DNA of 64,000 bases from a phage, in sequence record PZ386967.1; one strand, written 5' to 3'. The translations under genes and the position numbers were made by a program. Shown here one piece after another: positions 18,708 through 61,221 of the stretch (positions are counted from its first letter, which is position 1; each line of letters begins with the position of its first letter). Below the pieces are notes generated by a model. That model was not told where the DNA came from. It ran no database searches and saw only the letters and a program-made list of their open reading frames with translations.

Positions 18708-20216
18708 ATGGCAGACATCCAGATTGTTAAGGTTAACGAAGTCCGCATGCGTTGCATCGCAGATCTTTCTATCAGGGAAGAACTGAATGACTACTTCAAA
18801 TTCGAAGACCCGAACTTCGTTCCCAACCCCTTCTCTAAATGGGACGGGGTTGTTCGCTTGTTCACCAAGTCATCCGGCCTGATTGATATCGGCCTACTGT
18901 TTGAGGTGTTCAAGTTCTGCAAGAACAACAACTACACCATTGAACTGGATCCGGCTCTGAAGTACATTCAGGACATCCCAGACCAAGAAATCCATGACTT
19001 CATCAACAGTCTGCATCCAAAGATCCGCACCGAAAATCACGAATATATCGATGCCGAGACTCGTGACTACCAGTACGACACCATCGCCAAGGCTATGCGT
19101 CAAACCAGATGCGTCTGTGAACTGGCTACGAGTGCCGGTAAGTCCTTTATTCTGTATGTCATGGCGCGGTACTACAGGCAGCGCAGAGAAGCTCTCGAAA
19201 GTCCTCTGAAGACGCTTATCGTGGTTCCGTCAATTCACCTGGTCACTCAGCTGTACGACAACTTTGAAGAGTACGCACACGGCAGTGATTGGAAGCCCGT
19301 TGTCAACACTCAATTGATCTTTGAGGGCGCGACAAAGGAAATCAGCAAACCAATCGTCATCAGTACATGGCAGGGTATTCAAGACCAGCCGAAGGAATGG
19401 TTCCACCAGTTCGGTGATATCGTGGTGGATGAAGTGCACACCTCCAAGTCTGAGAAACTGTCTTACATCCTAAACAACTGCATCTATGCCGACCAGCGCC
19501 TGGGGGTTACAGGTACGCTGGCGAATACCAAAGTTGCCGGGCTTCAGGTGGTGGCTCACTTCGGGGCGTACCATAAGATCATCACGGCTCGCGATCTTAT
19601 CAATCTCGGGTACGCCACTGACATCAAAGTGAAGATGATTCAGCTGAAGCACACTCCGGCGGATGCTGTTGGTCTAGACGGGGATTATTCCAAGGAAATA
19701 GAATACCTTATCACACACCAGTCCCGCAACGAACTGATCGCCAAGATGGCACTGAATCTGAAAGGAAACGTGGCCATCATGTTCGAACGTATTGATGGTC
19801 ACATGATGGTCGTGTATGATATGCTGAGCGCAGTCAAGCCCAACGTGTTTGTCATCAACGGGGAAGTGAAGATCGAAGACCGCCGCCGCATACAGAAAGC
19901 GATGGAGGATGGAGAGGACATCACCCTGTTGGCATCATACGGGACAATGCAGCAGGGAGTGTCGATCAAGAAGCTACACCACCTTGTACTGGCACACCCG
20001 AGCAAGTCATATATCCGCGTCATACAGACATTGGGTCGTCTGATGCGTCAGCACTCCTCTAAGGACGTCGCGTGGATATGGGACTTAGTGGATGATGCAT
20101 CGTACAACGCCAGCACGAACCACGCTCTTAGGCACTCTCACGAGCGTTACAAGTTTTACCTGGCAGAGCGCCACCCTGTGGAATTCATGAAGGTGGCGCT
20201 GGGTAATCACGATTAA
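18708..20216 (+). CDS. uvsW: UvsW-like SF2 helicase
   Basis: ATSAGKS, IVVDEVH, GVSIKKLHHLVLAHPSKSYIRVIQTLGRLMR and WIWDLVDDA match T4 UvsW; RBS GGGAG. Confidence 0.85.
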   Translation: MADIQIVKVNEVRMRCIADLSIREELNDYFKFEDPNFVPNPFSKWDGVVRLFTKSSGLIDIGLLFEVFKFCKNNNYTIELDPALKYIQDIPDQEIHDFINSLHPKIRTENHEYIDAETRDYQYDTIAKAMRQTRCVCELATSAGKSFILYVMARYYRQRREALESPLKTLIVVPSIHLVTQLYDNFEEYAHGSDWKPVVNTQLIFEGATKEISKPIVISTWQGIQDQPKEWFHQFGDIVVDEVHTSKSEKLSYILNNCIYADQRLGVTGTLANTKVAGLQVVAHFGAYHKIITARDLINLGYATDIKVKMIQLKHTPADAVGLDGDYSKEIEYLITHQSRNELIAKMALNLKGNVAIMFERIDGHMMVVYDMLSAVKPNVFVINGEVKIEDRRRIQKAMEDGEDITLLASYGTMQQGVSIKKLHHLVLAHPSKSYIRVIQTLGRLMRQHSSKDVAWIWDLVDDASYNASTNHALRHSHERYKFYLAERHPVEFMKVALGNHD

Positions 20217-20584
20217 TCTTGATTCACATAGGCGGGGGTGGCCTCGCCTTCATCAGATACTACGCCGAACAATTTGTCCAGAGAAGCCAGACATTGTGAG
20301 TTCAGGTGTTCACTGATCGTATCCTTCAGCATTTGTTCGCTGCCCATTTTGAATGGTAGAACCTTCGCTTCGATGCCGTTTTCAAACGTCACAACACCGA
20401 CATACAGACCAACTTTCAGGCCTGTCATCAAGCCAAGAGGGACAAATCGCGGCTCCGATGGTAAGTTCTTGTCTGACGCCAGCTGTGCCAGATAAACTGG
20501 GGTGCCTGTGACAAATTGCCCTGCGGTGAGGATGGCGTCTGGCTTACTGCATCCGACCGCATATAATCCTACGAACTGTTTCAT
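20213..20584 (-). CDS. Hypothetical protein (123 aa)
   Basis: Minus-strand ORF convergent with uvsW, divergent from the AT-rich control region. Confidence 0.4.
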   Translation of the reverse strand: MKQFVGLYAVGCSKPDAILTAGQFVTGTPVYLAQLASDKNLPSEPRFVPLGLMTGLKVGLYVGVVTFENGIEAKVLPFKMGSEQMLKDTISEHLNSQCLASLDKLFGVVSDEGEATPAYVNQD

Positions 20585-20947
20585 ATATTACTCTCGTGTG
20601 TTGGTTAACCTGACATACATATTATTTCGCATGCATGTTTAGACCAAATTAAATTAATTTTGCTGTTGAATAAAAAATTGCTTTCCTGTTGAACAATGGC
20701 GTGGTATTATACGAGTTGTGAGTGTTAACGAACAACGAGTATTTGTTTTATGAGCGAAGCGAATAGGATTAATAAAGATTATTATCTTTAATAAAGGTTA
20801 TTATCTTTAATAAAGTCCATAAATGCCGAAGGCATTTATTAATAACGCGTAGCGCAATTTGCCACTTGTTCTATAAACAAAACACAGCGATACTAGATTG
20901 CGTCAAACATGACTTGAACCCCCACTATATTTTGAGGATACATACAA
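20585..20947. promoter_or_regulatory. AT-rich 360-bp divergent intergenic region with tandem repeat and hairpin
   Basis: Longest non-coding stretch in the window; 19-bp tandem repeat (A/G)TTATTATCTTTAATAAAG x2 at 20777-20814 and hairpin AAATGCC-GAA-GGCATTT at 20819-20835. Confidence 0.45.
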
Positions 20948-21616
20948 ATGCAAGAGATCACTCTCTCCGAACGTACACTTCAGTTGCTGGCCAACTTTGA
21001 GACCATCAACCCATCTATCGTCCTGACACCGGGTAAGATGCTGCGCAGCATTAACGATTCGTCTACTGTTATCGCCGTGGCACAGATCGAAGAAGACTTC
21101 CCGTTTGAGTTCCCTATCCTGGACCTGACCAAACTTCTGGCCATCCAGCGCCTGCCTTCCTTCAAAGGTGGTAAAGCCGAATTCCATCAGGACTACATCC
21201 TGTTGAAAGGCGAAAACTCTCAGCTGCAATTCTGGCGTTCTGCTAAAGAACTCACTGTTGTTCCGGCTGACACCATTGAACTGCCGTCTGTCGACTTTGA
21301 AGCGATCATCACTCCAGAGAAGATGAAAGAACTGACCCGCGCCTGTTCTACCCTCGGACACAAGACTGTGCGCCTGGTTGCTCAGGGTGGCAAAACTCGC
21401 CTGGTTGCAACCACCACTACCCTGGACAACTCCAACAACTACACTGTTGAGCTGGGCGAAACCGCGCTGCCGGACTTCGTAATGCCGCTGGATGTTGCCA
21501 ACCTGAAAATGATCGAAGGCAACTACACTCTGCGTGCCTGTGCTGATCTACAGATGGTGAACTTCCAATCATCCGACGCGACGATCAATTACTTCGTCGG
21601 CGCACAGATTGAGTAA
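20948..21616 (+). CDS. gp45: Sliding clamp (gp45-like)
   Basis: N-terminus LQLLANFETINPSIVL matches T4 gp45 ALLKNFATINSGIML; size 222 aa versus 228. Confidence 0.8.
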   Translation: MQEITLSERTLQLLANFETINPSIVLTPGKMLRSINDSSTVIAVAQIEEDFPFEFPILDLTKLLAIQRLPSFKGGKAEFHQDYILLKGENSQLQFWRSAKELTVVPADTIELPSVDFEAIITPEKMKELTRACSTLGHKTVRLVAQGGKTRLVATTTTLDNSNNYTVELGETALPDFVMPLDVANLKMIEGNYTLRACADLQMVNFQSSDATINYFVGAQIE

Positions 21617-21634
21617 TCAATCTCCAGCCTGATG

Positions 21635-21673
21635 CTATAATGTGTGGGCGGGGCGTTCCCCGCCTATTTGAAA
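21635..21673 (+). promoter_or_regulatory. Promoter -10 (TATAAT) followed by 5'-leader stem-loop
   Basis: TATAAT at 21635-21640, then GGCGGGG-CGTT-CCCCGCC hairpin and CTATTTGAAATG, the same hairpin-leader arrangement seen at 33273 and 33832. Confidence 0.4.
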
Positions 21674-33259: not shown

Positions 33260-33318
33260 TTCTATAACTTTGGGCGGGGTATGATTACCCCGTCTATTTG
33301 AAATGCAGGAACTATACC

Positions 33319-33825
33319 ATGACCGATCAACAAATTCAAGATTTATTTTACCTCGTCCATGATAAGTCCCACATCATGCGCCCCGGTACTGTTTCCCCTG
33401 CCGTCCGTGATCTGGTGCAAGAATTGCGCGAACCACAGACGACCACACTTTATCGCGGGTTGCCTAAAGAGGACGTTGCGCGTTTAGAGATGATGTTTGA
33501 ACGAGGCGACATGTTCCAGACATGGGATTCTTGCCTTAGCTTCAGTGAACTGAAGCATGTGGCCAAAAAATTTTCTAAATCGTACGGAACCCAAGCTGTT
33601 GCCCGCATTTGTTACAAACATCGAAACAGACTCCCGGAGGGGCTTAATGTCTATGGTTCTCTAGAAAAATTTGTGAACAAAGGCGATGAATCAGAAATGG
33701 ATATGCTGGACTTGGCGTCCATGGAGAAAGAATGGATATTCTGCCAGCCTCGCGTCATACCAGTTTCAAGAAAAATGGCAACAGACGGCACGATGGTTTT
33801 TACCGTATCACTTGTTACCCTATAA
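33319..33825 (+). CDS. Hypothetical protein (168 aa)
   Basis: ATG in conserved GGAACTATACCATG context; flanked by identical 31-bp hairpin-leader repeats. Confidence 0.5.
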   Translation: MTDQQIQDLFYLVHDKSHIMRPGTVSPAVRDLVQELREPQTTTLYRGLPKEDVARLEMMFERGDMFQTWDSCLSFSELKHVAKKFSKSYGTQAVARICYKHRNRLPEGLNVYGSLEKFVNKGDESEMDMLDLASMEKEWIFCQPRVIPVSRKMATDGTMVFTVSLVTL

Positions 33826-33877
33826 ACCCACGGCGGGGTATGATTACCCCGTCTATTTGAAACCAAGAGACTATATC

Positions 33878-34255
33878 ATGAAAAAGTTAATCCTCGCTGT
33901 TGCCCTGCTGGGCGCTTCCTTTGCTGCTGTTTCCGCCCCTCCTGTCATCACCGGAGTGTCTACCAACGGTGTTTATGCTTTCAAGGCGTATGGCCAAGAC
34001 CTCGTTCTGTATAAGAACGGGAAGATGATTGAGCGCTGCGTATCAGACGACGTGAATCGTGGGATCGACAATCAGGGTAGCCCATACGTCCTGGACATCT
34101 ATTCCTGCTCCAACGGGACGAAGTCCTTTGGCGTCAAGACCTTTGGCAACGTCGCCGACGGTGGCTGGGGCTTCATGTTCGAAACCCGCAACCACCACCC
34201 GGTCAAGACCATGCAAGAAGAGTTCTTGATCTCTGTCGGGGGTGGAACATTATGA
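33878..34255 (+). CDS. Secreted protein with signal peptide (125 aa)
   Basis: MKKLILAVALLGASFAAVSA|PP signal peptide; conserved start context. Confidence 0.5.
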   Translation: MKKLILAVALLGASFAAVSAPPVITGVSTNGVYAFKAYGQDLVLYKNGKMIERCVSDDVNRGIDNQGSPYVLDIYSCSNGTKSFGVKTFGNVADGGWGFMFETRNHHPVKTMQEEFLISVGGGTL

Positions 34256-38923: not shown

Positions 38924-40642
38924 GTGACAGCATTCAACCAATATACCAAGGCGCTTGACGGCGTCGGACCAGTCAGCATAGACCGCATCAAGTCTCTTGC
39001 CACTGAGTTCTTCCCGTATGACACCGCCAACCCCGGCCAGATGGAATGCATCGTTGAAGCCATTGATGCCCTTGTGAATAAGAAATTCAAACACGTGATC
39101 ATCGAGGCTCCGACTGGTGTAGGTAAATCCCTCATCGGCACTACCATCCATAATGTGCTTCGCCATTTGGTTCTTGAGCACAACCCGTATGGTCAGTTCC
39201 GCACGTCTATCACGACGCCGACCAAAGGTTTACAGGATCAGTATGCAGCAGAGAAAGCCGTGGCGATAGACATCCTGAAGGGCAAGAAGAACTACCGTTG
39301 CCACATCAGTCCCGACCTATACTACAACGCCATTCAGTGCCGTATGGCATGCCGTGATGGCCACTGTAGTAAGAATCGTTGCCCATATGTTCAGGCGCGT
39401 CGACAGTGGACCGACGTCTCCTCCCTGCGCTGCACCAACGCCGCCATGATGGTGGAGATGTGTACGACGATTTGTATGAAGCCGGAAAACCGTGCCGATA
39501 TGCTGATCCTTGACGAGTGTCATAAGATGCCCTCTACGCTCCTAGAGCATACTATCATGGAATACAACATAAAGGCTGTGGAAGGGTTGCTTACGATCCC
39601 CGAGGGAGTGCCTATCGTGGAGACCATCAAGGATATCATCATCCGCACAGAGAACTATGAATTGGGCAAGCTGTATTCCCTGTCTGGTGAGATGCATGCG
39701 ATATTTGATGAACTACACGGCAAGGTTGAAGCCCTGTTGGAAACTCTTGAAGAACTGGTAGAGGATGAGCGCCTGACTGAAGCCCAGGTGATGAAGCTGT
39801 CTGATATTATTGATAATCTTCACAACCTCAGTGACTACTGCGGTATCATGGGGCAGACCAACGCCAGCACTTTCATCGTACAGGAGAAGGACAAGGGTAT
39901 GATTCAGTTCAAGCCTGTCATCGCCTCTGATGTATCCCAGTTCGGTCTGTTCCGCAAGGGTGACTACCACGTTCACATGTCGGCGACCATCTGCGGGATT
40001 GACTCGTACGCCCGGTCACTGGGTATCCGCGAGGGTGAGTACCACAAGATACAGATCGGCAACCCTATCCCGATTGAGAACCGGAAAGTCAACTACATGC
40101 CCATCATGAAGATGACAGCGAACATGGGTGACTACGAGATGAAGAAGCTGGCTGAATACGTGGATGAAATTATCGCGTTCCACCCTGGGCAGTCTGGCAT
40201 CATTCACACAGTCAGTTATGACCGCGCCCTGGCTCTACAAAAGTTCAGTAAGTACCGGAATATGATTCACGTTCCTCGTACTCGTAAGGCTCTGATGGAC
40301 ATCATGGAAAACGCGTTCAGGACGAAGACGCCTTGTGTCATCGCCAGTCCGGCCATGGAAGAGGGGTATGACTTCAAAGGCGATTATAGTCGATTTCAGA
40401 TCTTGATCAAGGTGCCATACGATTACCTTGGTGATCCTCTGGTGGCCCACGTCAACAGTGTGGACCCATCGGCGTACTTCAGGATGGCGGTACTGCGTAT
40501 CGTTCAGATGTGTGGGCGTTCGGTCAGGGGTGTGAATGACTGGGCTGCGACGTACATCCTTGATTCTTCTTTTGAATCACTGATGATGCGCAACCCAGAG
40601 TTCTTCCCCGCTTGGTTCACTGATGCCGTGTTTGAGGTTTAG
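38924..40642 (+). CDS. DinG/Rad3(XPD)-family SF2 helicase with Fe-S cluster cysteines
   Basis: Q-motif PGQ, Walker A APTGVGKS, four Cys between motifs (CHISPDLYYNAIQCRMACRDGHCSKNRC), DEAH box LDECH. Confidence 0.75.
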   Translation: MTAFNQYTKALDGVGPVSIDRIKSLATEFFPYDTANPGQMECIVEAIDALVNKKFKHVIIEAPTGVGKSLIGTTIHNVLRHLVLEHNPYGQFRTSITTPTKGLQDQYAAEKAVAIDILKGKKNYRCHISPDLYYNAIQCRMACRDGHCSKNRCPYVQARRQWTDVSSLRCTNAAMMVEMCTTICMKPENRADMLILDECHKMPSTLLEHTIMEYNIKAVEGLLTIPEGVPIVETIKDIIIRTENYELGKLYSLSGEMHAIFDELHGKVEALLETLEELVEDERLTEAQVMKLSDIIDNLHNLSDYCGIMGQTNASTFIVQEKDKGMIQFKPVIASDVSQFGLFRKGDYHVHMSATICGIDSYARSLGIREGEYHKIQIGNPIPIENRKVNYMPIMKMTANMGDYEMKKLAEYVDEIIAFHPGQSGIIHTVSYDRALALQKFSKYRNMIHVPRTRKALMDIMENAFRTKTPCVIASPAMEEGYDFKGDYSRFQILIKVPYDYLGDPLVAHVNSVDPSAYFRMAVLRIVQMCGRSVRGVNDWAATYILDSSFESLMMRNPEFFPAWFTDAVFEV

Positions 40643-41406
40643 TAACCCGCAACGAAGGACAGATGGCACTTGACATTCGGTTCCAACGACGTCACAGAAA
40701 CCGTCATATTGTCCGTATCTTGGCTGAAGTCAATGGTGGCGAGAGGTTTGGTCTGAATATGGTTGTAAACACTGTAGATCAGATCCTCGCCACGATACCC
40801 TACCTTCCCGTCGGTGTCTTGCCAATGACCCAGTGTCTCATCGTAGACATGCACTCTGAACTCGATCATATGGAAGAGTGCCTTGGGGATGTCCTTGAGT
40901 ACGCTGGTGCCAACCACGGGAATCTCTATGCTGGAATCATTGGAGTTCCCTTCATATACCGAAGCCCATGCAAAGGTGGGATCTCCCCCAGCAACAGGGG
41001 TTCGCTTCCAGTATTGGAATTCTGGGTTGCCTGAAGCGTTCTTCTGAAGTAGAATGACCTCACCACCTTTGAAGTTCGAAGTATCGATGTCGCCTCGCTG
41101 AAGTTCATCTGCTGGAGATCCAATAAATTTCCAGCCTTCGCGATCCAGTAAAGACTTATAATAGTCGGTGAACACGTTGCTGTCTTCTGCATCGTTGATG
41201 GCATCTTTGAGACCTTGGCCTGTCACCATCTCGTTGAGCTTCAACCACATGTTCTTGACAGCAGACGCTGCTGCGACTTGTCCAGCAGTCCCACCTGCAG
41301 CATAATCATAGATGATATCTTCTGACTTGATAGCATCATAGATAGAGAGGAGCAATTGCTCAATCTGCGGGGCGGTGAGACTGAAACGATATGCGCGGGG
41401 TGTCAT
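40639..41406 (-). CDS. Hypothetical late protein (255 aa), possibly structural
   Basis: Minus-strand ORF from internal ATG 41406 with RBS AAGAGGA; canonical T4 late promoter TATAAATA about 36 nt upstream on the same strand. Confidence 0.45.
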   Translation of the reverse strand: MTPRAYRFSLTAPQIEQLLLSIYDAIKSEDIIYDYAAGGTAGQVAAASAVKNMWLKLNEMVTGQGLKDAINDAEDSNVFTDYYKSLLDREGWKFIGSPADELQRGDIDTSNFKGGEVILLQKNASGNPEFQYWKRTPVAGGDPTFAWASVYEGNSNDSSIEIPVVGTSVLKDIPKALFHMIEFRVHVYDETLGHWQDTDGKVGYRGEDLIYSVYNHIQTKPLATIDFSQDTDNMTVSVTSLEPNVKCHLSFVAGY

Positions 41407-41441
41407 AGTTTCATTCCTCTTTCTATAAAACCAGTTTGGGA

Positions 41442-41449
41442 TATTTATA
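41442..41449 (-). promoter_or_regulatory. T4-type late promoter (TATAAATA) on minus strand
   Basis: Exact TATAAATA (plus-strand TATTTATA) upstream of the minus-strand gene. Confidence 0.5.
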
Positions 41450-41451
41450 TC

Positions 41452-41979
41452 ATGATAGAAATTTATTCTGACGGGGGTTCTAACCCGAAGACCAACCAGG
41501 CCGCAGGCTGGGCATTTGTCATCAGGCCAATAACGGGTATGCAATGGAAGGTGTTCTTCGGCCATCTACCTCCCCCGTCCACTAACAATATCGCCGAGTT
41601 GTTGGGTGTGACCAACGCATTGAAGCTACTGTGGGCATTCTCAGGAAAGGGTGAGCGCAGAATACCAAAGGCAACAATTTGGTCTGACAGCCAATATGCC
41701 ATCAAGAGTGTCACCGAATGGCGAGCGAAGTGGGAGTATCAGGGTTTCCCAGAAAAGAACGTTGAACTCATCAAAGATCTGTTCAGAATCTATGATCTCG
41801 TTTGTTCAATTTGTGATGTTGAACTAAAATGGGTTAAGGGTCATGCGGGGCACGAAGGCAACGAACTTGCCGATGACTGGGCCACAGCAGCCAAAAACGA
41901 CAGCAACTTCCTGATTGAGAATGACAAGATCTCAGTGAAGAAGGTTGTTGGATCTTTTGATGAATTTATCGGTATCTGA
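41452..41979 (+). CDS. rnhA: Ribonuclease HI (bacterial-type RNase H)
   Basis: IYSDGGS...GWAFV, TNNIAEL, IWSDSQY, WVKGHAGHEGNELADDWA correspond to RNase HI catalytic motifs. Confidence 0.8.
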   Translation: MIEIYSDGGSNPKTNQAAGWAFVIRPITGMQWKVFFGHLPPPSTNNIAELLGVTNALKLLWAFSGKGERRIPKATIWSDSQYAIKSVTEWRAKWEYQGFPEKNVELIKDLFRIYDLVCSICDVELKWVKGHAGHEGNELADDWATAAKNDSNFLIENDKISVKKVVGSFDEFIGI

Positions 41980-41990
41980 GGGCTTTCATA

Positions 41991-42782
41991 ATGGGAATGA
42001 ACTTCGTGGACAGAGGGGAGAATGTCGTCAAATATTTCACGGACGAAGACAACGAGCGTGTCATTAGTATCCTTCGTGATTGGATCCCCGCCCGCAAGAA
42101 AGCACTTGCTGAGGGCACCAGGCTTCCAAAGATCCCCAACTATGTTGCTCTGCAGGTCCAGCGCATCATCACCAAGATGAGTACCCGCTACAACTATCGC
42201 GACTATCCCTTCCGTGAAGACATGGTCTCTGAAGCAATAGTCAACATCCTGCGCTACCTCCACACCTTTGACGTCGAACACATTGGAAAGAAAGGGAAGA
42301 TCAACTTCTTCTCTTGGGTGACCATGTGCGCTGATCGATCATTCGCTCGTAAACTGAATATCGAAGAAGAACACACGTACATCAAATTGCGCTCATTTGA
42401 AGAGGCGGGTGGGTTCGCAGGCCTGGCAGACGATCCCGACTTCCAACAAGAGATCTTTGTTGACGCGACAGGGATTGGTATGGACTTCCGTGAGCGTATC
42501 GGTAACTTTGAGAACAAAAAGGACGCTCAAAGGCAGAAGGAGCGAGAGAAGGTGGAGGCGGCTCGTCTCGCAGAATCGAATAAAAAGATTGCGAAAGGCA
42601 TACTTCAATACATGGCGCAGGCTAAGAATACGGTAACAGCGCAGGCCGAAGACAATTCAGATCAGGACTTTGGCAAAACCCAATTCAATCTGGAAGATGA
42701 TATCTGTGCGATGGAACCAGATTGGGAAGCCCTCAAACAAAGATTAGAAGAACGGGAGAAAAAGAATAATGGCGATTGCTAA
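41991..42782 (+). CDS. gp55: Late sigma factor (gp55-like) with acidic/coiled C-terminal extension
   Basis: ISILRDWIPARKKALAEG...MVSEAIVNILRYLHTFDVEH...FFSWVTMCADRSFARKL parallels T4 gp55 LQAIIDWKTEL...[20 protein letters not shown]...AYITQACFNAFVQRIKK. Confidence 0.7.
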   Translation: MGMNFVDRGENVVKYFTDEDNERVISILRDWIPARKKALAEGTRLPKIPNYVALQVQRIITKMSTRYNYRDYPFREDMVSEAIVNILRYLHTFDVEHIGKKGKINFFSWVTMCADRSFARKLNIEEEHTYIKLRSFEEAGGFAGLADDPDFQQEIFVDATGIGMDFRERIGNFENKKDAQRQKEREKVEAARLAESNKKIAKGILQYMAQAKNTVTAQAEDNSDQDFGKTQFNLEDDICAMEPDWEALKQRLEEREKKNNGDC

Positions 42783-54468: not shown

Positions 54469-54563
54469 AGGCCTCATTCGACGAGGCCTTTTAAAATACT
54501 TCAAAAATAATTTTAAAAAATTATTGAAAAAGACTTTACTCTTCAATAATGATGCACTATTAT
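54469..54563 (+). promoter_or_regulatory. Terminator followed by AT-rich region and T4-type early promoter
   Basis: Hairpin AGGCCTC-ATTCGAC-GAGGCCT with T-run; -35 TTTACT 54535-54540, 17 bp, -10 TATTAT 54558-54563. Confidence 0.55.
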
Positions 54564-60890: not shown

Positions 60891-61115
60891 ATGATTACTA
60901 TCTATTCCAAACAAGGTTGCGCTCAGTGTGTAACAGCCGAAAATCTGTGCAAAATGAAAGGGCTGGAACACAAGATCCTCAAGCTGGACAAAGATTACCG
61001 GCTGGAAGAACTTCAGCAGTTGACGGGTAAGCCGCGCGTGTCGATGCCTGTAATCGTCCTCGCTGACCAGACCGTGACCGACGTTAATGGACTCGCCGCC
61101 AGCCTTAAACGCTGA
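60891..61115 (+). CDS. nrdC: NrdC-like glutaredoxin/thioredoxin
   Basis: IYSKQGCAQCVTAENL redox CxxC motif; immediately downstream of nrdB. Confidence 0.55.
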   Translation: MITIYSKQGCAQCVTAENLCKMKGLEHKILKLDKDYRLEELQQLTGKPRVSMPVIVLADQTVTDVNGLAASLKR

Positions 61116-61123
61116 CAAGCCAA

Positions 61124-61170
61124 AGCCCCTCAATGAGGGGCTTTACTTCTATAATCCCTGCGCTTATACT
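61124..61170 (+). promoter_or_regulatory. Terminator plus T4-type early promoter cassette
   Basis: Hairpin GCCCCTCA-A-TGAGGGGC, then -35 TTTACT (61142-61147), 17 bp, -10 TATACT (61165-61170). Confidence 0.55.
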
Positions 61171-61221
61171 TCCCAGTAATTCATTGGCATTCGCCACAAA
61201 TTGAACAGCAGGAACTATATC

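Follow-up and report, generated by a model that had tools for sequence, protein, structure and literature searches.

A conserved hairpin module upstream of the sliding-clamp gene of Ackermannviridae phages as a candidate origin of replication

Results

The gap upstream of the clamp gene

The 64,000-nucleotide stretch of phage DNA analysed here (sequence record PZ386967.1, referred to as the window) was found by sequence match to be DNA of an Ackermannviridae (ViI-like) phage. At positions 20585–20947 it carries a gap of 363 bp that fills exactly the space between a small open reading frame (ORF) of 123 aa and the gene for a gp45-type sliding clamp, and in this gap a module of conserved hairpins precedes an AT-rich tract of very low duplex stability. 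Copies of the module were also found upstream of gp6 and gp5. The top matches to the window were the Escherichia phages LHE287 and RPN242 (~98% identity), with Dickeya LIMEstone-type, Kuttervirus and Taipeivirus phages matching at lower identity. The clamp gene (20948–21616, plus strand) was identified by its match to PHROG 223 (E=2e-64) and by the annotations of relatives, and downstream of it come the clamp loader genes gp44 and gp62 and then regA. The 123-aa ORF (20213–20584, minus strand) is the sole minus-strand gene hereabouts, and upstream of it uvsY, a hypothetical gene and uvsW lie on the plus strand.

An earlier, sequence-only reading of the window had described an AT-rich gap between genes upstream of the clamp gene, and both its boundaries and its richness in AT (GC content 0.33 against ~0.50 in the window) were borne out. 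Its description as the longest non-coding stretch is about right, as a crude ORF tiling leaves two longer gaps, 33260–33685 and 41566–41990, both of which contain ORFs (of 175 and 207 aa). The flanking genes are divergent solely through the one small minus-strand ORF, and uvsY and uvsW further upstream share the plus strand with gp45.

Conservation was assessed in an alignment of seven genomes from four genera by scoring invariant columns. Across the whole intergenic gap 53% of the columns are invariant, compared with 27%, 10% and 6% at the third codon positions of gp45, the 123-aa ORF and uvsW, respectively, which indicates strong selection on the gap. This selection does not, however, appear to fall on the repeat and hairpin that the sequence-only reading had singled out and proposed to check for conservation: two blocks, ~20675–20765 and 20855–20947, reach 70–85% invariant columns, whereas the segment with the repeat and hairpin (20770–20845) has 0–25% and is the least conserved part of the gap. 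A further block, (A)TGTTTAGACCAAAT at 20635–20650, is invariant in 12 phages of four genera and lies in the leader/promoter area of the 123-aa ORF; a Serratia phage carries the related CCCGTTTAGAGC.

The hairpin module

The hairpin module (~20672–20766, plus strand) consists of an A-tract box followed by two purine-rich hairpins, H1 and H2. The box, AAAAAATTGCTTTCCT (20672–20687, plus strand), is promoter-like, conserved across genera and shared with the locus upstream of gp6. In LHE287 the pattern AAAAACT(G/A)CTTT(C/T)CT, with at most two mismatches, matched at the gp45 and gp6 loci, and the sole other match lay inside an annotated ORF. From its sequence we infer that the box is a promoter element. 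A -10-like hexamer, TATTAT (20705–20710, plus strand), lies 17 nt downstream of it and overlaps the first 2 nt of H1. All 14 aligned sequences have TA(T/A/C)TAT at this site apart from that of the Erwinia phage, where TATATT stands one base out of register, and the gp6 locus has the matching geometry, box-N17-TAT(nn)T, before H1.

Hairpin H1 (20709–20742, plus strand) reads ATAC/GA/GTTGT/GA/GT [GTTA] AC/GA/ACAAC/GA/GTAT, an architecture of three helices separated by two tandem G.A mismatch steps. Hairpin H2 (20750–20764, plus strand) reads AT/GA/GC [GAA] GC/GA/AT, and its core, GCGAAGC, is a classic DNA mini-hairpin. The sequence GAGCG(A/T)AGCGA of H2 is kept in six genera, with its outer pair changing from T-A to C-G. 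The H1/H2 fold was the predicted minimum-energy structure in the window and in Vi01, Serratia phage 2050H1, Erwinia phage phiEa2809 and Vibrio phage Kuja; in Kuja the stem has 22 bp, lies on the opposite strand and is capped by a GA-GC-GGA-GC-GA apex (z = -7.2).

Pairing is preserved throughout. In H1 100% of the cells were paired, with double changes at two pairs, and across 12 distinct sequences the figure was 99.4%, with three pairs changed on both sides (A-U/U-A, C-G/U-A and C-G/U-A); controls in which the partner was slid by 1–3 columns gave 13–49%. The apical pair occurs as a third type, A-U, in an uncultured relative, and the Serratia and Erwinia phages have the middle helix of H1 lengthened by simultaneous insertions on both sides. 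U.G wobbles were present in 8 of the 12 sequences, where the other strand would have A.C mismatches, and all loops read G..A on the plus strand (GAA, GTA, GGA, GTTA and GTCA). Together, the wobbles and the loops are good, though not overwhelming, evidence from the sequences that the plus strand is the one that folds. As RNA the plus strand folds at -14.2 kcal/mol and the minus strand at -5.7 kcal/mol, and a 145-nt plus-strand segment gave z = -3.9.

A covariance model built from this locus, model R1, matched H1, the linker and H2 at 20705–20767 on the plus strand with 89.6 bits (E=4e-20). With filters off this was the single match in the 64-kb window, the next best scoring 10 bits, and TATACGAGTTGTGAG, GAGC-N3-4-GCGA and GCGNAGC showed no excess elsewhere in the window. 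A search of Rfam 15 at permissive thresholds with all three loci returned no family, the best scores of 13–22 bits being far below the thresholds. Pattern scans of IMG/VR with 14–15 specified bases gave mostly chance matches; filtering with R1 recovered one known type, and no member of the module was found outside Ackermannviridae in these filtered scans.

The AT-rich tract and hairpin H3

Directly after H2 lies an AT-rich tract of minimum stability (20763–20845), a candidate DNA unwinding element. The 50 bp from 20763 have a nearest-neighbour free energy of -47.9 kcal/mol, the minimum of the window (mean -68.9, standard deviation 4.2), and no other 50-mer in the ~149-kb genome of LHE287 is as unstable as their counterpart there. 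The tract is ~80–86% AT over 50–80 bp, and it is this composition, not the sequence, that is kept across genera: in every genus H2 is followed by 40–65 bp of ~85–90% A+T of unrelated sequence and then by a GC box, CGCG(C/T)(G/A)AG. In the window this box is GCGTAGCGC (20847–20855, plus strand), at the right edge of the tract, and its equivalent in other genera, as in the gp6 paralogue, is CGCGCGAG. Next in order of increasing stability among the 50-bp duplexes of the window comes 54489–54531, another AT-rich, imperfectly repeated stretch (period 10–13, free energy -49.4, 90% AT), whose counterpart in LHE287 (~70.28 kb) ranks second there too.

The hairpin that had been noticed upstream of the clamp gene is present, and was delimited as ATAAATGCC [GAA] GGCATTTAT at 20819–20839 (H3, plus strand), with nine perfect pairs and the apex CCGAAGG. 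H3 is conserved in Aglimvirinae; Kuttervirus has a GTCA loop at this place and Taipeivirus a different AT palindrome, ATAGATTAATCTAT. The 9-bp stem has only three G-C pairs and is followed by TAATAAC on the plus strand and by GGACTTTATT on the minus strand. A lenient terminator scan flagged H3 weakly and on the minus strand only, and there are no genes converging on it. The left arm of H3 is similar to late-promoter motifs, with the sequence CCATAAATGCC (TATAAATG in Kuttervirus).

Paralogues upstream of gp6 and gp5

Paralogues were sought by running model R1 on the complete genome of LHE287 (PP761450), the closest complete genome. A second locus was found upstream of gp6 (146815–147010 in LHE287, minus strand; 43 bits, E=4e-8), where the order is H1, an insert of 45 nt, H2 in extended form, a short stretch of AT and CGCGCGAG. 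A third, partial match (61105–61215, plus strand; 20 bits, E=0.015) lies upstream of gp5 and consists of the 45-nt insert and H2, with no H1; its H2 shares the identical 18-mer TGAGCGAAGCGAATAGGA with H2 of the window. The 45-nt insert, CCTCCATGGC..TGGAATGGTGCTGCCCGCATAGGGCGG, present at both the gp6 and gp5 loci, has compensatory changes of its own. The gp6 copy has four helices with compensatory changes, and its hairpin loop CCAU covaries with a downstream AUGG (45–57, AU to CG), which suggests a pseudoknot or an alternative helix.

In LHE287 the three gaps measure 361–365 bp and lie at ~61, ~106 and ~147 kb of the 149.5-kb circularly permuted genome. The gene contexts of the loci are uvsY-uvsW|gp45, gp26|gp5-gp25 and gp6. 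All three loci are present in ~270 database records. The other genera tested also gave an R1 match to the gp6 copy, at 40–45 bits in the four close ones and at 20.5 bits in the Serratia type. In LHE287 the gap upstream of gp6 (146753–147117) is ~94% identical to that of Kuttervirus (Salmonella) phages and ~79% to that of Ag3; the gp45-upstream gap of LHE287, unlike this one, groups with Aglimvirinae. The differing affinities are evidence, at the level of sequence identity, of recombination between genera in non-coding DNA.

A motif (A/C)CTAAATA(C/T)C occurs on the plus strand of the window at 2215, 15477, 18676, 46993 and 47580 and also upstream of gp6 and gp5 in LHE287. It sits shortly upstream of several genes, including uvsW and gp6, and looks like a version, in the ViI-like family, of the T4 late promoter TATAAATA. 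The late promoter of the family was not identified in the 2011 CBA120 paper (PMC3184105).

The 19-bp tandem repeat

The tandem repeat on which the sequence-only reading had built its case is present, although its coordinates had been off by one base and a leading half-unit had been overlooked. Tandem Repeats Finder located an array of 2.5 copies at 20769–20815 (period 19, 96% matches, score 87), the best in the window (runner-up 51) and overlapping the inverted repeats I1 and I3. Two full 19-bp units at 20778–20815 are preceded by the half-unit TTAATAAAG at 20769–20777. For copy counts the segment was extracted from 17 relatives: 1.5 copies were found in LIMEstone1, SKML-39, ChubbyThor, SP-9-14, AV101, fGh-Ecl02 and CAU_YEP3, 2.5 copies in the window, LHE287 and YX22, and 3.5 copies in A221. 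Span lengths in 46 Aglimvirinae records corresponded to 1.5 copies in 36, to 2.5 in seven and to 3.5 in one, and the remaining two differ by 7 nt. The copy number varies among phages that are 97–98% identical, and the extra unit is confined to a small, near-identical clade.

The ancestral state of 1.5 copies is itself an AT palindrome, TTAATAAAG-rTTATTATC-TTTAATAAAG (also read as TTAATAAAGrT-TATT-ATCTTTAATAA, inverted repeat I3), so that the array represents stepwise expansion by 19 bp at a palindrome. The repeat was absent from the Kuttervirus, Taipeivirus, Serratia and Erwinia phages; Kuttervirus has another AT-rich palindrome at this position and Taipeivirus little or nothing. In Erwinia phage phiEa2809 the corresponding tract has an independent duplication of 10 bp, CTTAATTTAA twice over. 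The 19-bp repeat is a young slippage product of variable copy number inside an AT-rich spacer. It agrees in each respect compared with a variable-number tandem repeat arising by slippage at an AT-rich palindrome, namely in its exact 19-bp head-to-tail steps, its variable copy number and its weakly constrained spacer, and no difference from such a repeat was found. Its usefulness is solely that of a polymorphism for strain typing.

These data bear on the proposal that iterated repeats next to replication genes mark an origin or a protein-binding array, with the 19-bp units as initiator-binding sites of an iteron-type origin. The repeats are real, AT-rich and next to replication genes, the adjoining AT-rich region could unwind, and direct repeats in AT-rich DNA near replication or late genes are also a feature of plasmid iteron origins and of T4 oriE, where the 12-nt iterons have an unproven role. 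However, iteron origins have at least three regular direct repeats (~17–22 bp) kept in relatives, and here most relatives have a single palindrome of 1.5 copies, phages 97–98% identical differ in copy number, four groups of relatives lack the unit, and it lies in the least conserved segment of the gap. Unlike T4 oriE and the plasmid iterons, it is a 1.5- to 3.5-copy polymorphism of one palindrome, unconserved, and no Rep-like protein was recognised beside it with PHROG or Pfam. The comparison of relatives largely refutes the proposal and leaves it next to no probability.

The clamp promoter and neighbouring genes

The right-hand conserved block is, judging by its sequence, the clamp gene's own promoter and leader, both of an ordinary kind. 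The sigma-70-type promoter (20866–20894, plus strand) has TTGTTC at 20866–20871, a 17-nt spacer and GATACT at 20889–20894; the hexamers are invariant in four genera, and the spacer varies in sequence while its length is kept. An uncultured relative and the Serratia, Vibrio and Kuja phages have equivalent sigma-70-type promoters, 44–65 nt before the ATG of gp45, and TTGCTT-N17-TAATAT was read by eye in Erwinia phage phiEa2809, where the scan chose a different site. The 5' leader of gp45 (20895–20947, plus strand; 70–85% invariant columns) has the ribosome-binding site GAGGA at 20934–20938. About 10 nt upstream of it a run of C (20920–20924) varies in length among near-identical phages, being CCCC in SKML-39, CCCCC in the window, CCCCCC in A221 and CCCCCCC in fGh-Ecl02. 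The 'middle promoter' and -10 signals annotated in this gap in LIMEstone1 are in silico matches to the T4 consensus in a family that lacks MotA, and were not used. Short ATG frames in the gap (10 and 13 codons) were discarded as conserved ORFs, the start codon being lost in Kuttervirus.

The 123-aa ORF belongs to PHROG 4255, of 'unknown function' (E=3e-49), and is annotated as hypothetical in relatives, in which it is syntenic across genera. It had no match in Pfam, no sequence match in PDB and no named PHROG, and a single-sequence AlphaFold model was unusable (pLDDT, the predicted local distance difference test, of 38.6). As a candidate initiator it was set aside on these grounds: no family, no PDB relative and no usable model. 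It is unrelated to the divergent gene at the gp6 locus. Its stop codon and that of uvsW overlap tail to tail by 4 nt (20213–20216), so that the transcript of each must extend in antisense into its neighbour.

A 657-bp ORF is inserted between gp45 and gp44 (window ~21617–21639) in YX22, PC3/PH4, CAU_YEP3, SW16-7 and pSal-SNUABM-02 and is annotated as a homing endonuclease in one relative; the window lacks it. In LIMEstone-type phages uvsW is interrupted by an element annotated as I-LimI. The ORFs in the two longer tiling gaps overlap their neighbours out of frame (33298–33825 with 33686–34255; 41356–41979 with 40639–41565 and 41991–42782) and could be frameshifts, nested genes or mobile insertions. 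Two records, OR844942 (Enterococcus phage Efm 3-10) and MN871475 (Pseudomonas phage Pa-sanjiao), have Kuttervirus-type sequence at the gp45-upstream locus, and probably either the host labels are wrong or the records are contaminated.

Discussion

Comparison with known systems

The locus combines a hairpin module that has paralogous copies with an adjacent tract of minimum stability that tolerates change in sequence and in length. Two kinds of known replication signal resemble parts of it. T4 oriF and oriG consist of a promoter and an A+T-rich unwinding element of non-specific sequence; the R-loop holds the duplex open, the gp41/61 primosome loads on the unpaired non-template strand, and the T4 origins cluster near late genes and points of diverging transcription (PMC3016281). 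Here, likewise, a promoter-like element is followed by an A+T-rich element of ~50 bp in which meltability and not sequence appears to matter and changes in repeat number are tolerated. The location is similar too, intergenic or at gene starts, near late genes and near uvsY and uvsW, and the replisome gene set is T4-like, comprising gp43, gp44/62, gp45, gp41, gp61, gp59, gp32, RNase H, UvsW and Dda. The three loci parallel the T4 positions, oriF lying by uvsY/uvsW/25/26 and oriE inside gene 5, upstream of gene 6.

There are also clear differences from oriF and oriG. The module has no sequence homology to them. According to the CBA120 paper (PMC3184105), control signals were not identifiable and ViI-like phages are without MotA and AsiA. 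Lacking these proteins, they cannot have a T4 middle promoter here; its TGCTT-like box lies ~19 nt from the -10 element and not ~12. The T4 origins, moreover, are without conserved hairpins or a common motif, whereas the paralogues here share a structured module.

The second resemblance is to signals on single-stranded DNA. GCGNAGC and GCGNNAGC DNA mini-hairpins occur at the primase origins of G4, St-1 and alpha3 and at ssiA of RSF1010, where the mini-hairpin sequence is CCGAAGG; such hairpins are poor ligands for the single-stranded DNA-binding protein SSB, and their RNA versions are far less stable (PMC13037366). The same motifs are found on the plus strand here, GCGAAGC and GCGTAGC in H2, CCGAAGG in H3, and GCGTTAGC, GCGTCAGC and GCGGAGC in H1 of relatives, with the H1 apexes of the window and of Kuttervirus deviating. 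Loops closed by a sheared G.A pair and the clustering of several hairpins on one strand are shared as well. The known cases, however, function on genomes or intermediates that are single-stranded to begin with, and the primases that read them are DnaG or RepB', whereas here the DNA is duplex and the primase gp61-like. A more distant parallel, purely an analogy, is ColE1 RNA II, a promoter-driven transcript with multiple stem-loops whose folding controls an RNA-DNA hybrid at a downstream origin; that RNA is ~550 nt long and is regulated by the antisense RNA I. A primer of this kind would reconcile an RNA-like structure with an origin function.

A transcript-primed origin

By analogy with these systems, the module and the AT tract may form a transcript-primed replication origin of the T4 oriF/oriG type. 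We give this interpretation somewhat less than an even chance of being right. An origin-type function nevertheless remains the leading hypothesis, although the argument from the repeats, by which it was originally proposed, fails; it leads because of the module conserved in its pairing, the gp6 and gp5 paralogues, the least stable duplex and the layout resembling oriF and oriG. In such an origin, host RNA polymerase would start at the box/-10 element and transcribe rightwards, and the RNA would remain paired with the template strand, as an R-loop, within the AT tract, which melts easily. The displaced plus strand would fold into the stable mini-hairpins H1, H2 and H3, which would hold the bubble open and mark the place where the gp59/gp41/gp61 primosome is loaded, and the processed 3' end of the RNA would prime leading-strand synthesis towards gene 45. 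An RNA started at the -10-like hexamer would lack the full hairpin, as the hexamer overlaps H1, and it is the displaced DNA that could form it. Expansion of the repeat would merely lengthen the unwinding element and hence be tolerated, and the clamp gene would be served by its separate promoter at 20866–20894. That this is a family-wide origin module of Ackermannviridae, in which mini-hairpins on the displaced strand direct a T4-type primosome beside an AT unwinding element, is a more doubtful extension of the same analogy.

A number of observations count against an origin. The box/-10-like element was not called by a generic sigma-70 scan, and as a promoter it is a putative one, by motif match only. 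The compensatory changes are few and follow clades, so that they represent few independent events, and the mini-hairpin motif showed no genome-wide enrichment. The AT tract that follows H2 is only ~20–24 nt long at the other two loci (gp6 and gp5), with larger ones within 100–400 bp. T4 R-loop origins need no conserved hairpins, model R1 gave no match and no homology at T4 oriE and oriF, and the positional agreement with the T4 origins could be coincidental. The H1 apexes of the window (GT-GTTA-AC) and of Kuttervirus (GC-TTT-GC) depart from the GCG..AGC rule, and the multi-helix form of the gp6 copy, with its possible pseudoknot-type covariation, is more RNA-like than expected of a DNA signal. 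No switch of GC skew was seen at the locus at third codon positions of co-oriented genes, which counts for little, as phages of the T4 type replicate mostly by way of recombination; a kink in the cumulative skew at 21–22 kb was too slight to be used. The literature yielded neither a transcriptome nor origin mapping for Ackermannviridae.

Other explanations

In the main alternative, the three modules would be small structured RNA genes or structured 5' leaders with a regulatory and not a replicative role, each transcribed from its own box/-10 promoter and ending at a hairpin after an AU-rich stretch; here the end would be at 20819–20839, giving an RNA of ~125 nt that might, for example, bind or titrate a protein through its G.A-rich hairpins. 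Such an explanation fits the layout common to the three loci (promoter-like box, structure, AU-rich stretch, terminal hairpin and the downstream gene's own promoter), the four compensated helices and the loop covariation of the gp6 copy, the better folding of the plus strand as RNA and the tolerance of U.G wobbles, and covariation-supported structure on one strand, if moderate in support and with few independent events, is what a structured RNA would display. It fits less well that no Rfam family was found at any of the three loci, and that a transcript starting 7 nt past the -10-like hexamer would lose the 5' strands of two H1 helices whose pairing is conserved. The terminal hairpin is not family-wide and would be a weak terminator on the plus strand, the scan having flagged the minus strand only; the AU-rich 'single-stranded' part differs from a typical seed region in being the least conserved segment, and loops of the GCGNAGC type are much weaker in RNA than in DNA. 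On balance we consider an RNA function somewhat less likely than an origin. An ordinary divergent regulatory region, with promoters, operators and leaders for the 123-aa ORF and gene 45, is in our judgement improbable. For gp45 the gap does hold a conserved leader and a sigma-70 promoter with good support, H3 was flagged as a terminator on the minus strand and its left arm is late-promoter-like, and in this explanation the AT palindrome and the GC hairpin would be a bidirectional terminator or insulator and H1 and H2 double-stranded sites for transcription factors. A minus-strand promoter directed towards the 123-aa ORF can be read across H1, TTGTTC-N18-TATAAT in the window and TTGCTC-N17-TATATT in Kuttervirus. 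As a candidate it was rejected, as it fails in the Serratia and Erwinia phages (spacer of 20–23 nt, -10 element AATAGT or AATATA), and these phages still keep the hairpin through compensatory changes and matching insertions. Strand-specific wobbles and invariant G..A loops would be unexpected in a site bound by protein as duplex, the paralogous copies precede the unrelated late genes gp5 and gp6, and a terminator would have nothing to stop where no gene converges on the hairpin.

It is very improbable that the modules are functionless relics of a small mobile or repeated element, either like a miniature inverted-repeat transposable element or carried by a homing endonuclease. The modular make-up of the copies (H1+H2, H1+insert+H2 and insert+H2), the homogenisation of H2 within the genome, with an identical 18-mer at two loci, and the many homing endonucleases of ViI-like phages would suit such an origin of the copies. 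Relics would not, however, be expected to occupy the same three positions across genera or to be conserved far above synonymous sites, the compensatory changes point to selection on pairing, and terminal inverted repeats, target duplications and extra copies are all lacking.

Significance

No description of Ackermannviridae origins, early promoters or the hairpin module was found in the accessible literature. The 2012 paper on the genus 'Viunalikevirus' is said to mention 'conserved regulatory sequences', and a prior description of the module may exist. Members of the family (the ViI, CBA120 and LIMEstone phages and Klebsiella Taipeivirus) are widely used in biocontrol and therapy. Next to nothing is known of the early promoters, origins and non-coding elements of these phages, and a short constrained element at three loci offers a concrete target. 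If the RNA interpretation were true, the module would be a new phage RNA family with three paralogues. If the origin interpretation is true, it would reveal by what means a replisome of the T4 type is recruited where MotA-dependent promoters are lacking, and would supply a case from a duplex-DNA phage for the long-noted link of GCGNAGC mini-hairpins to replication starts. The module would then combine the R-loop origin of T4 with the G4/ssi hairpin signal in a hybrid not yet described, and the three loci the first defined origins of Ackermannviridae.

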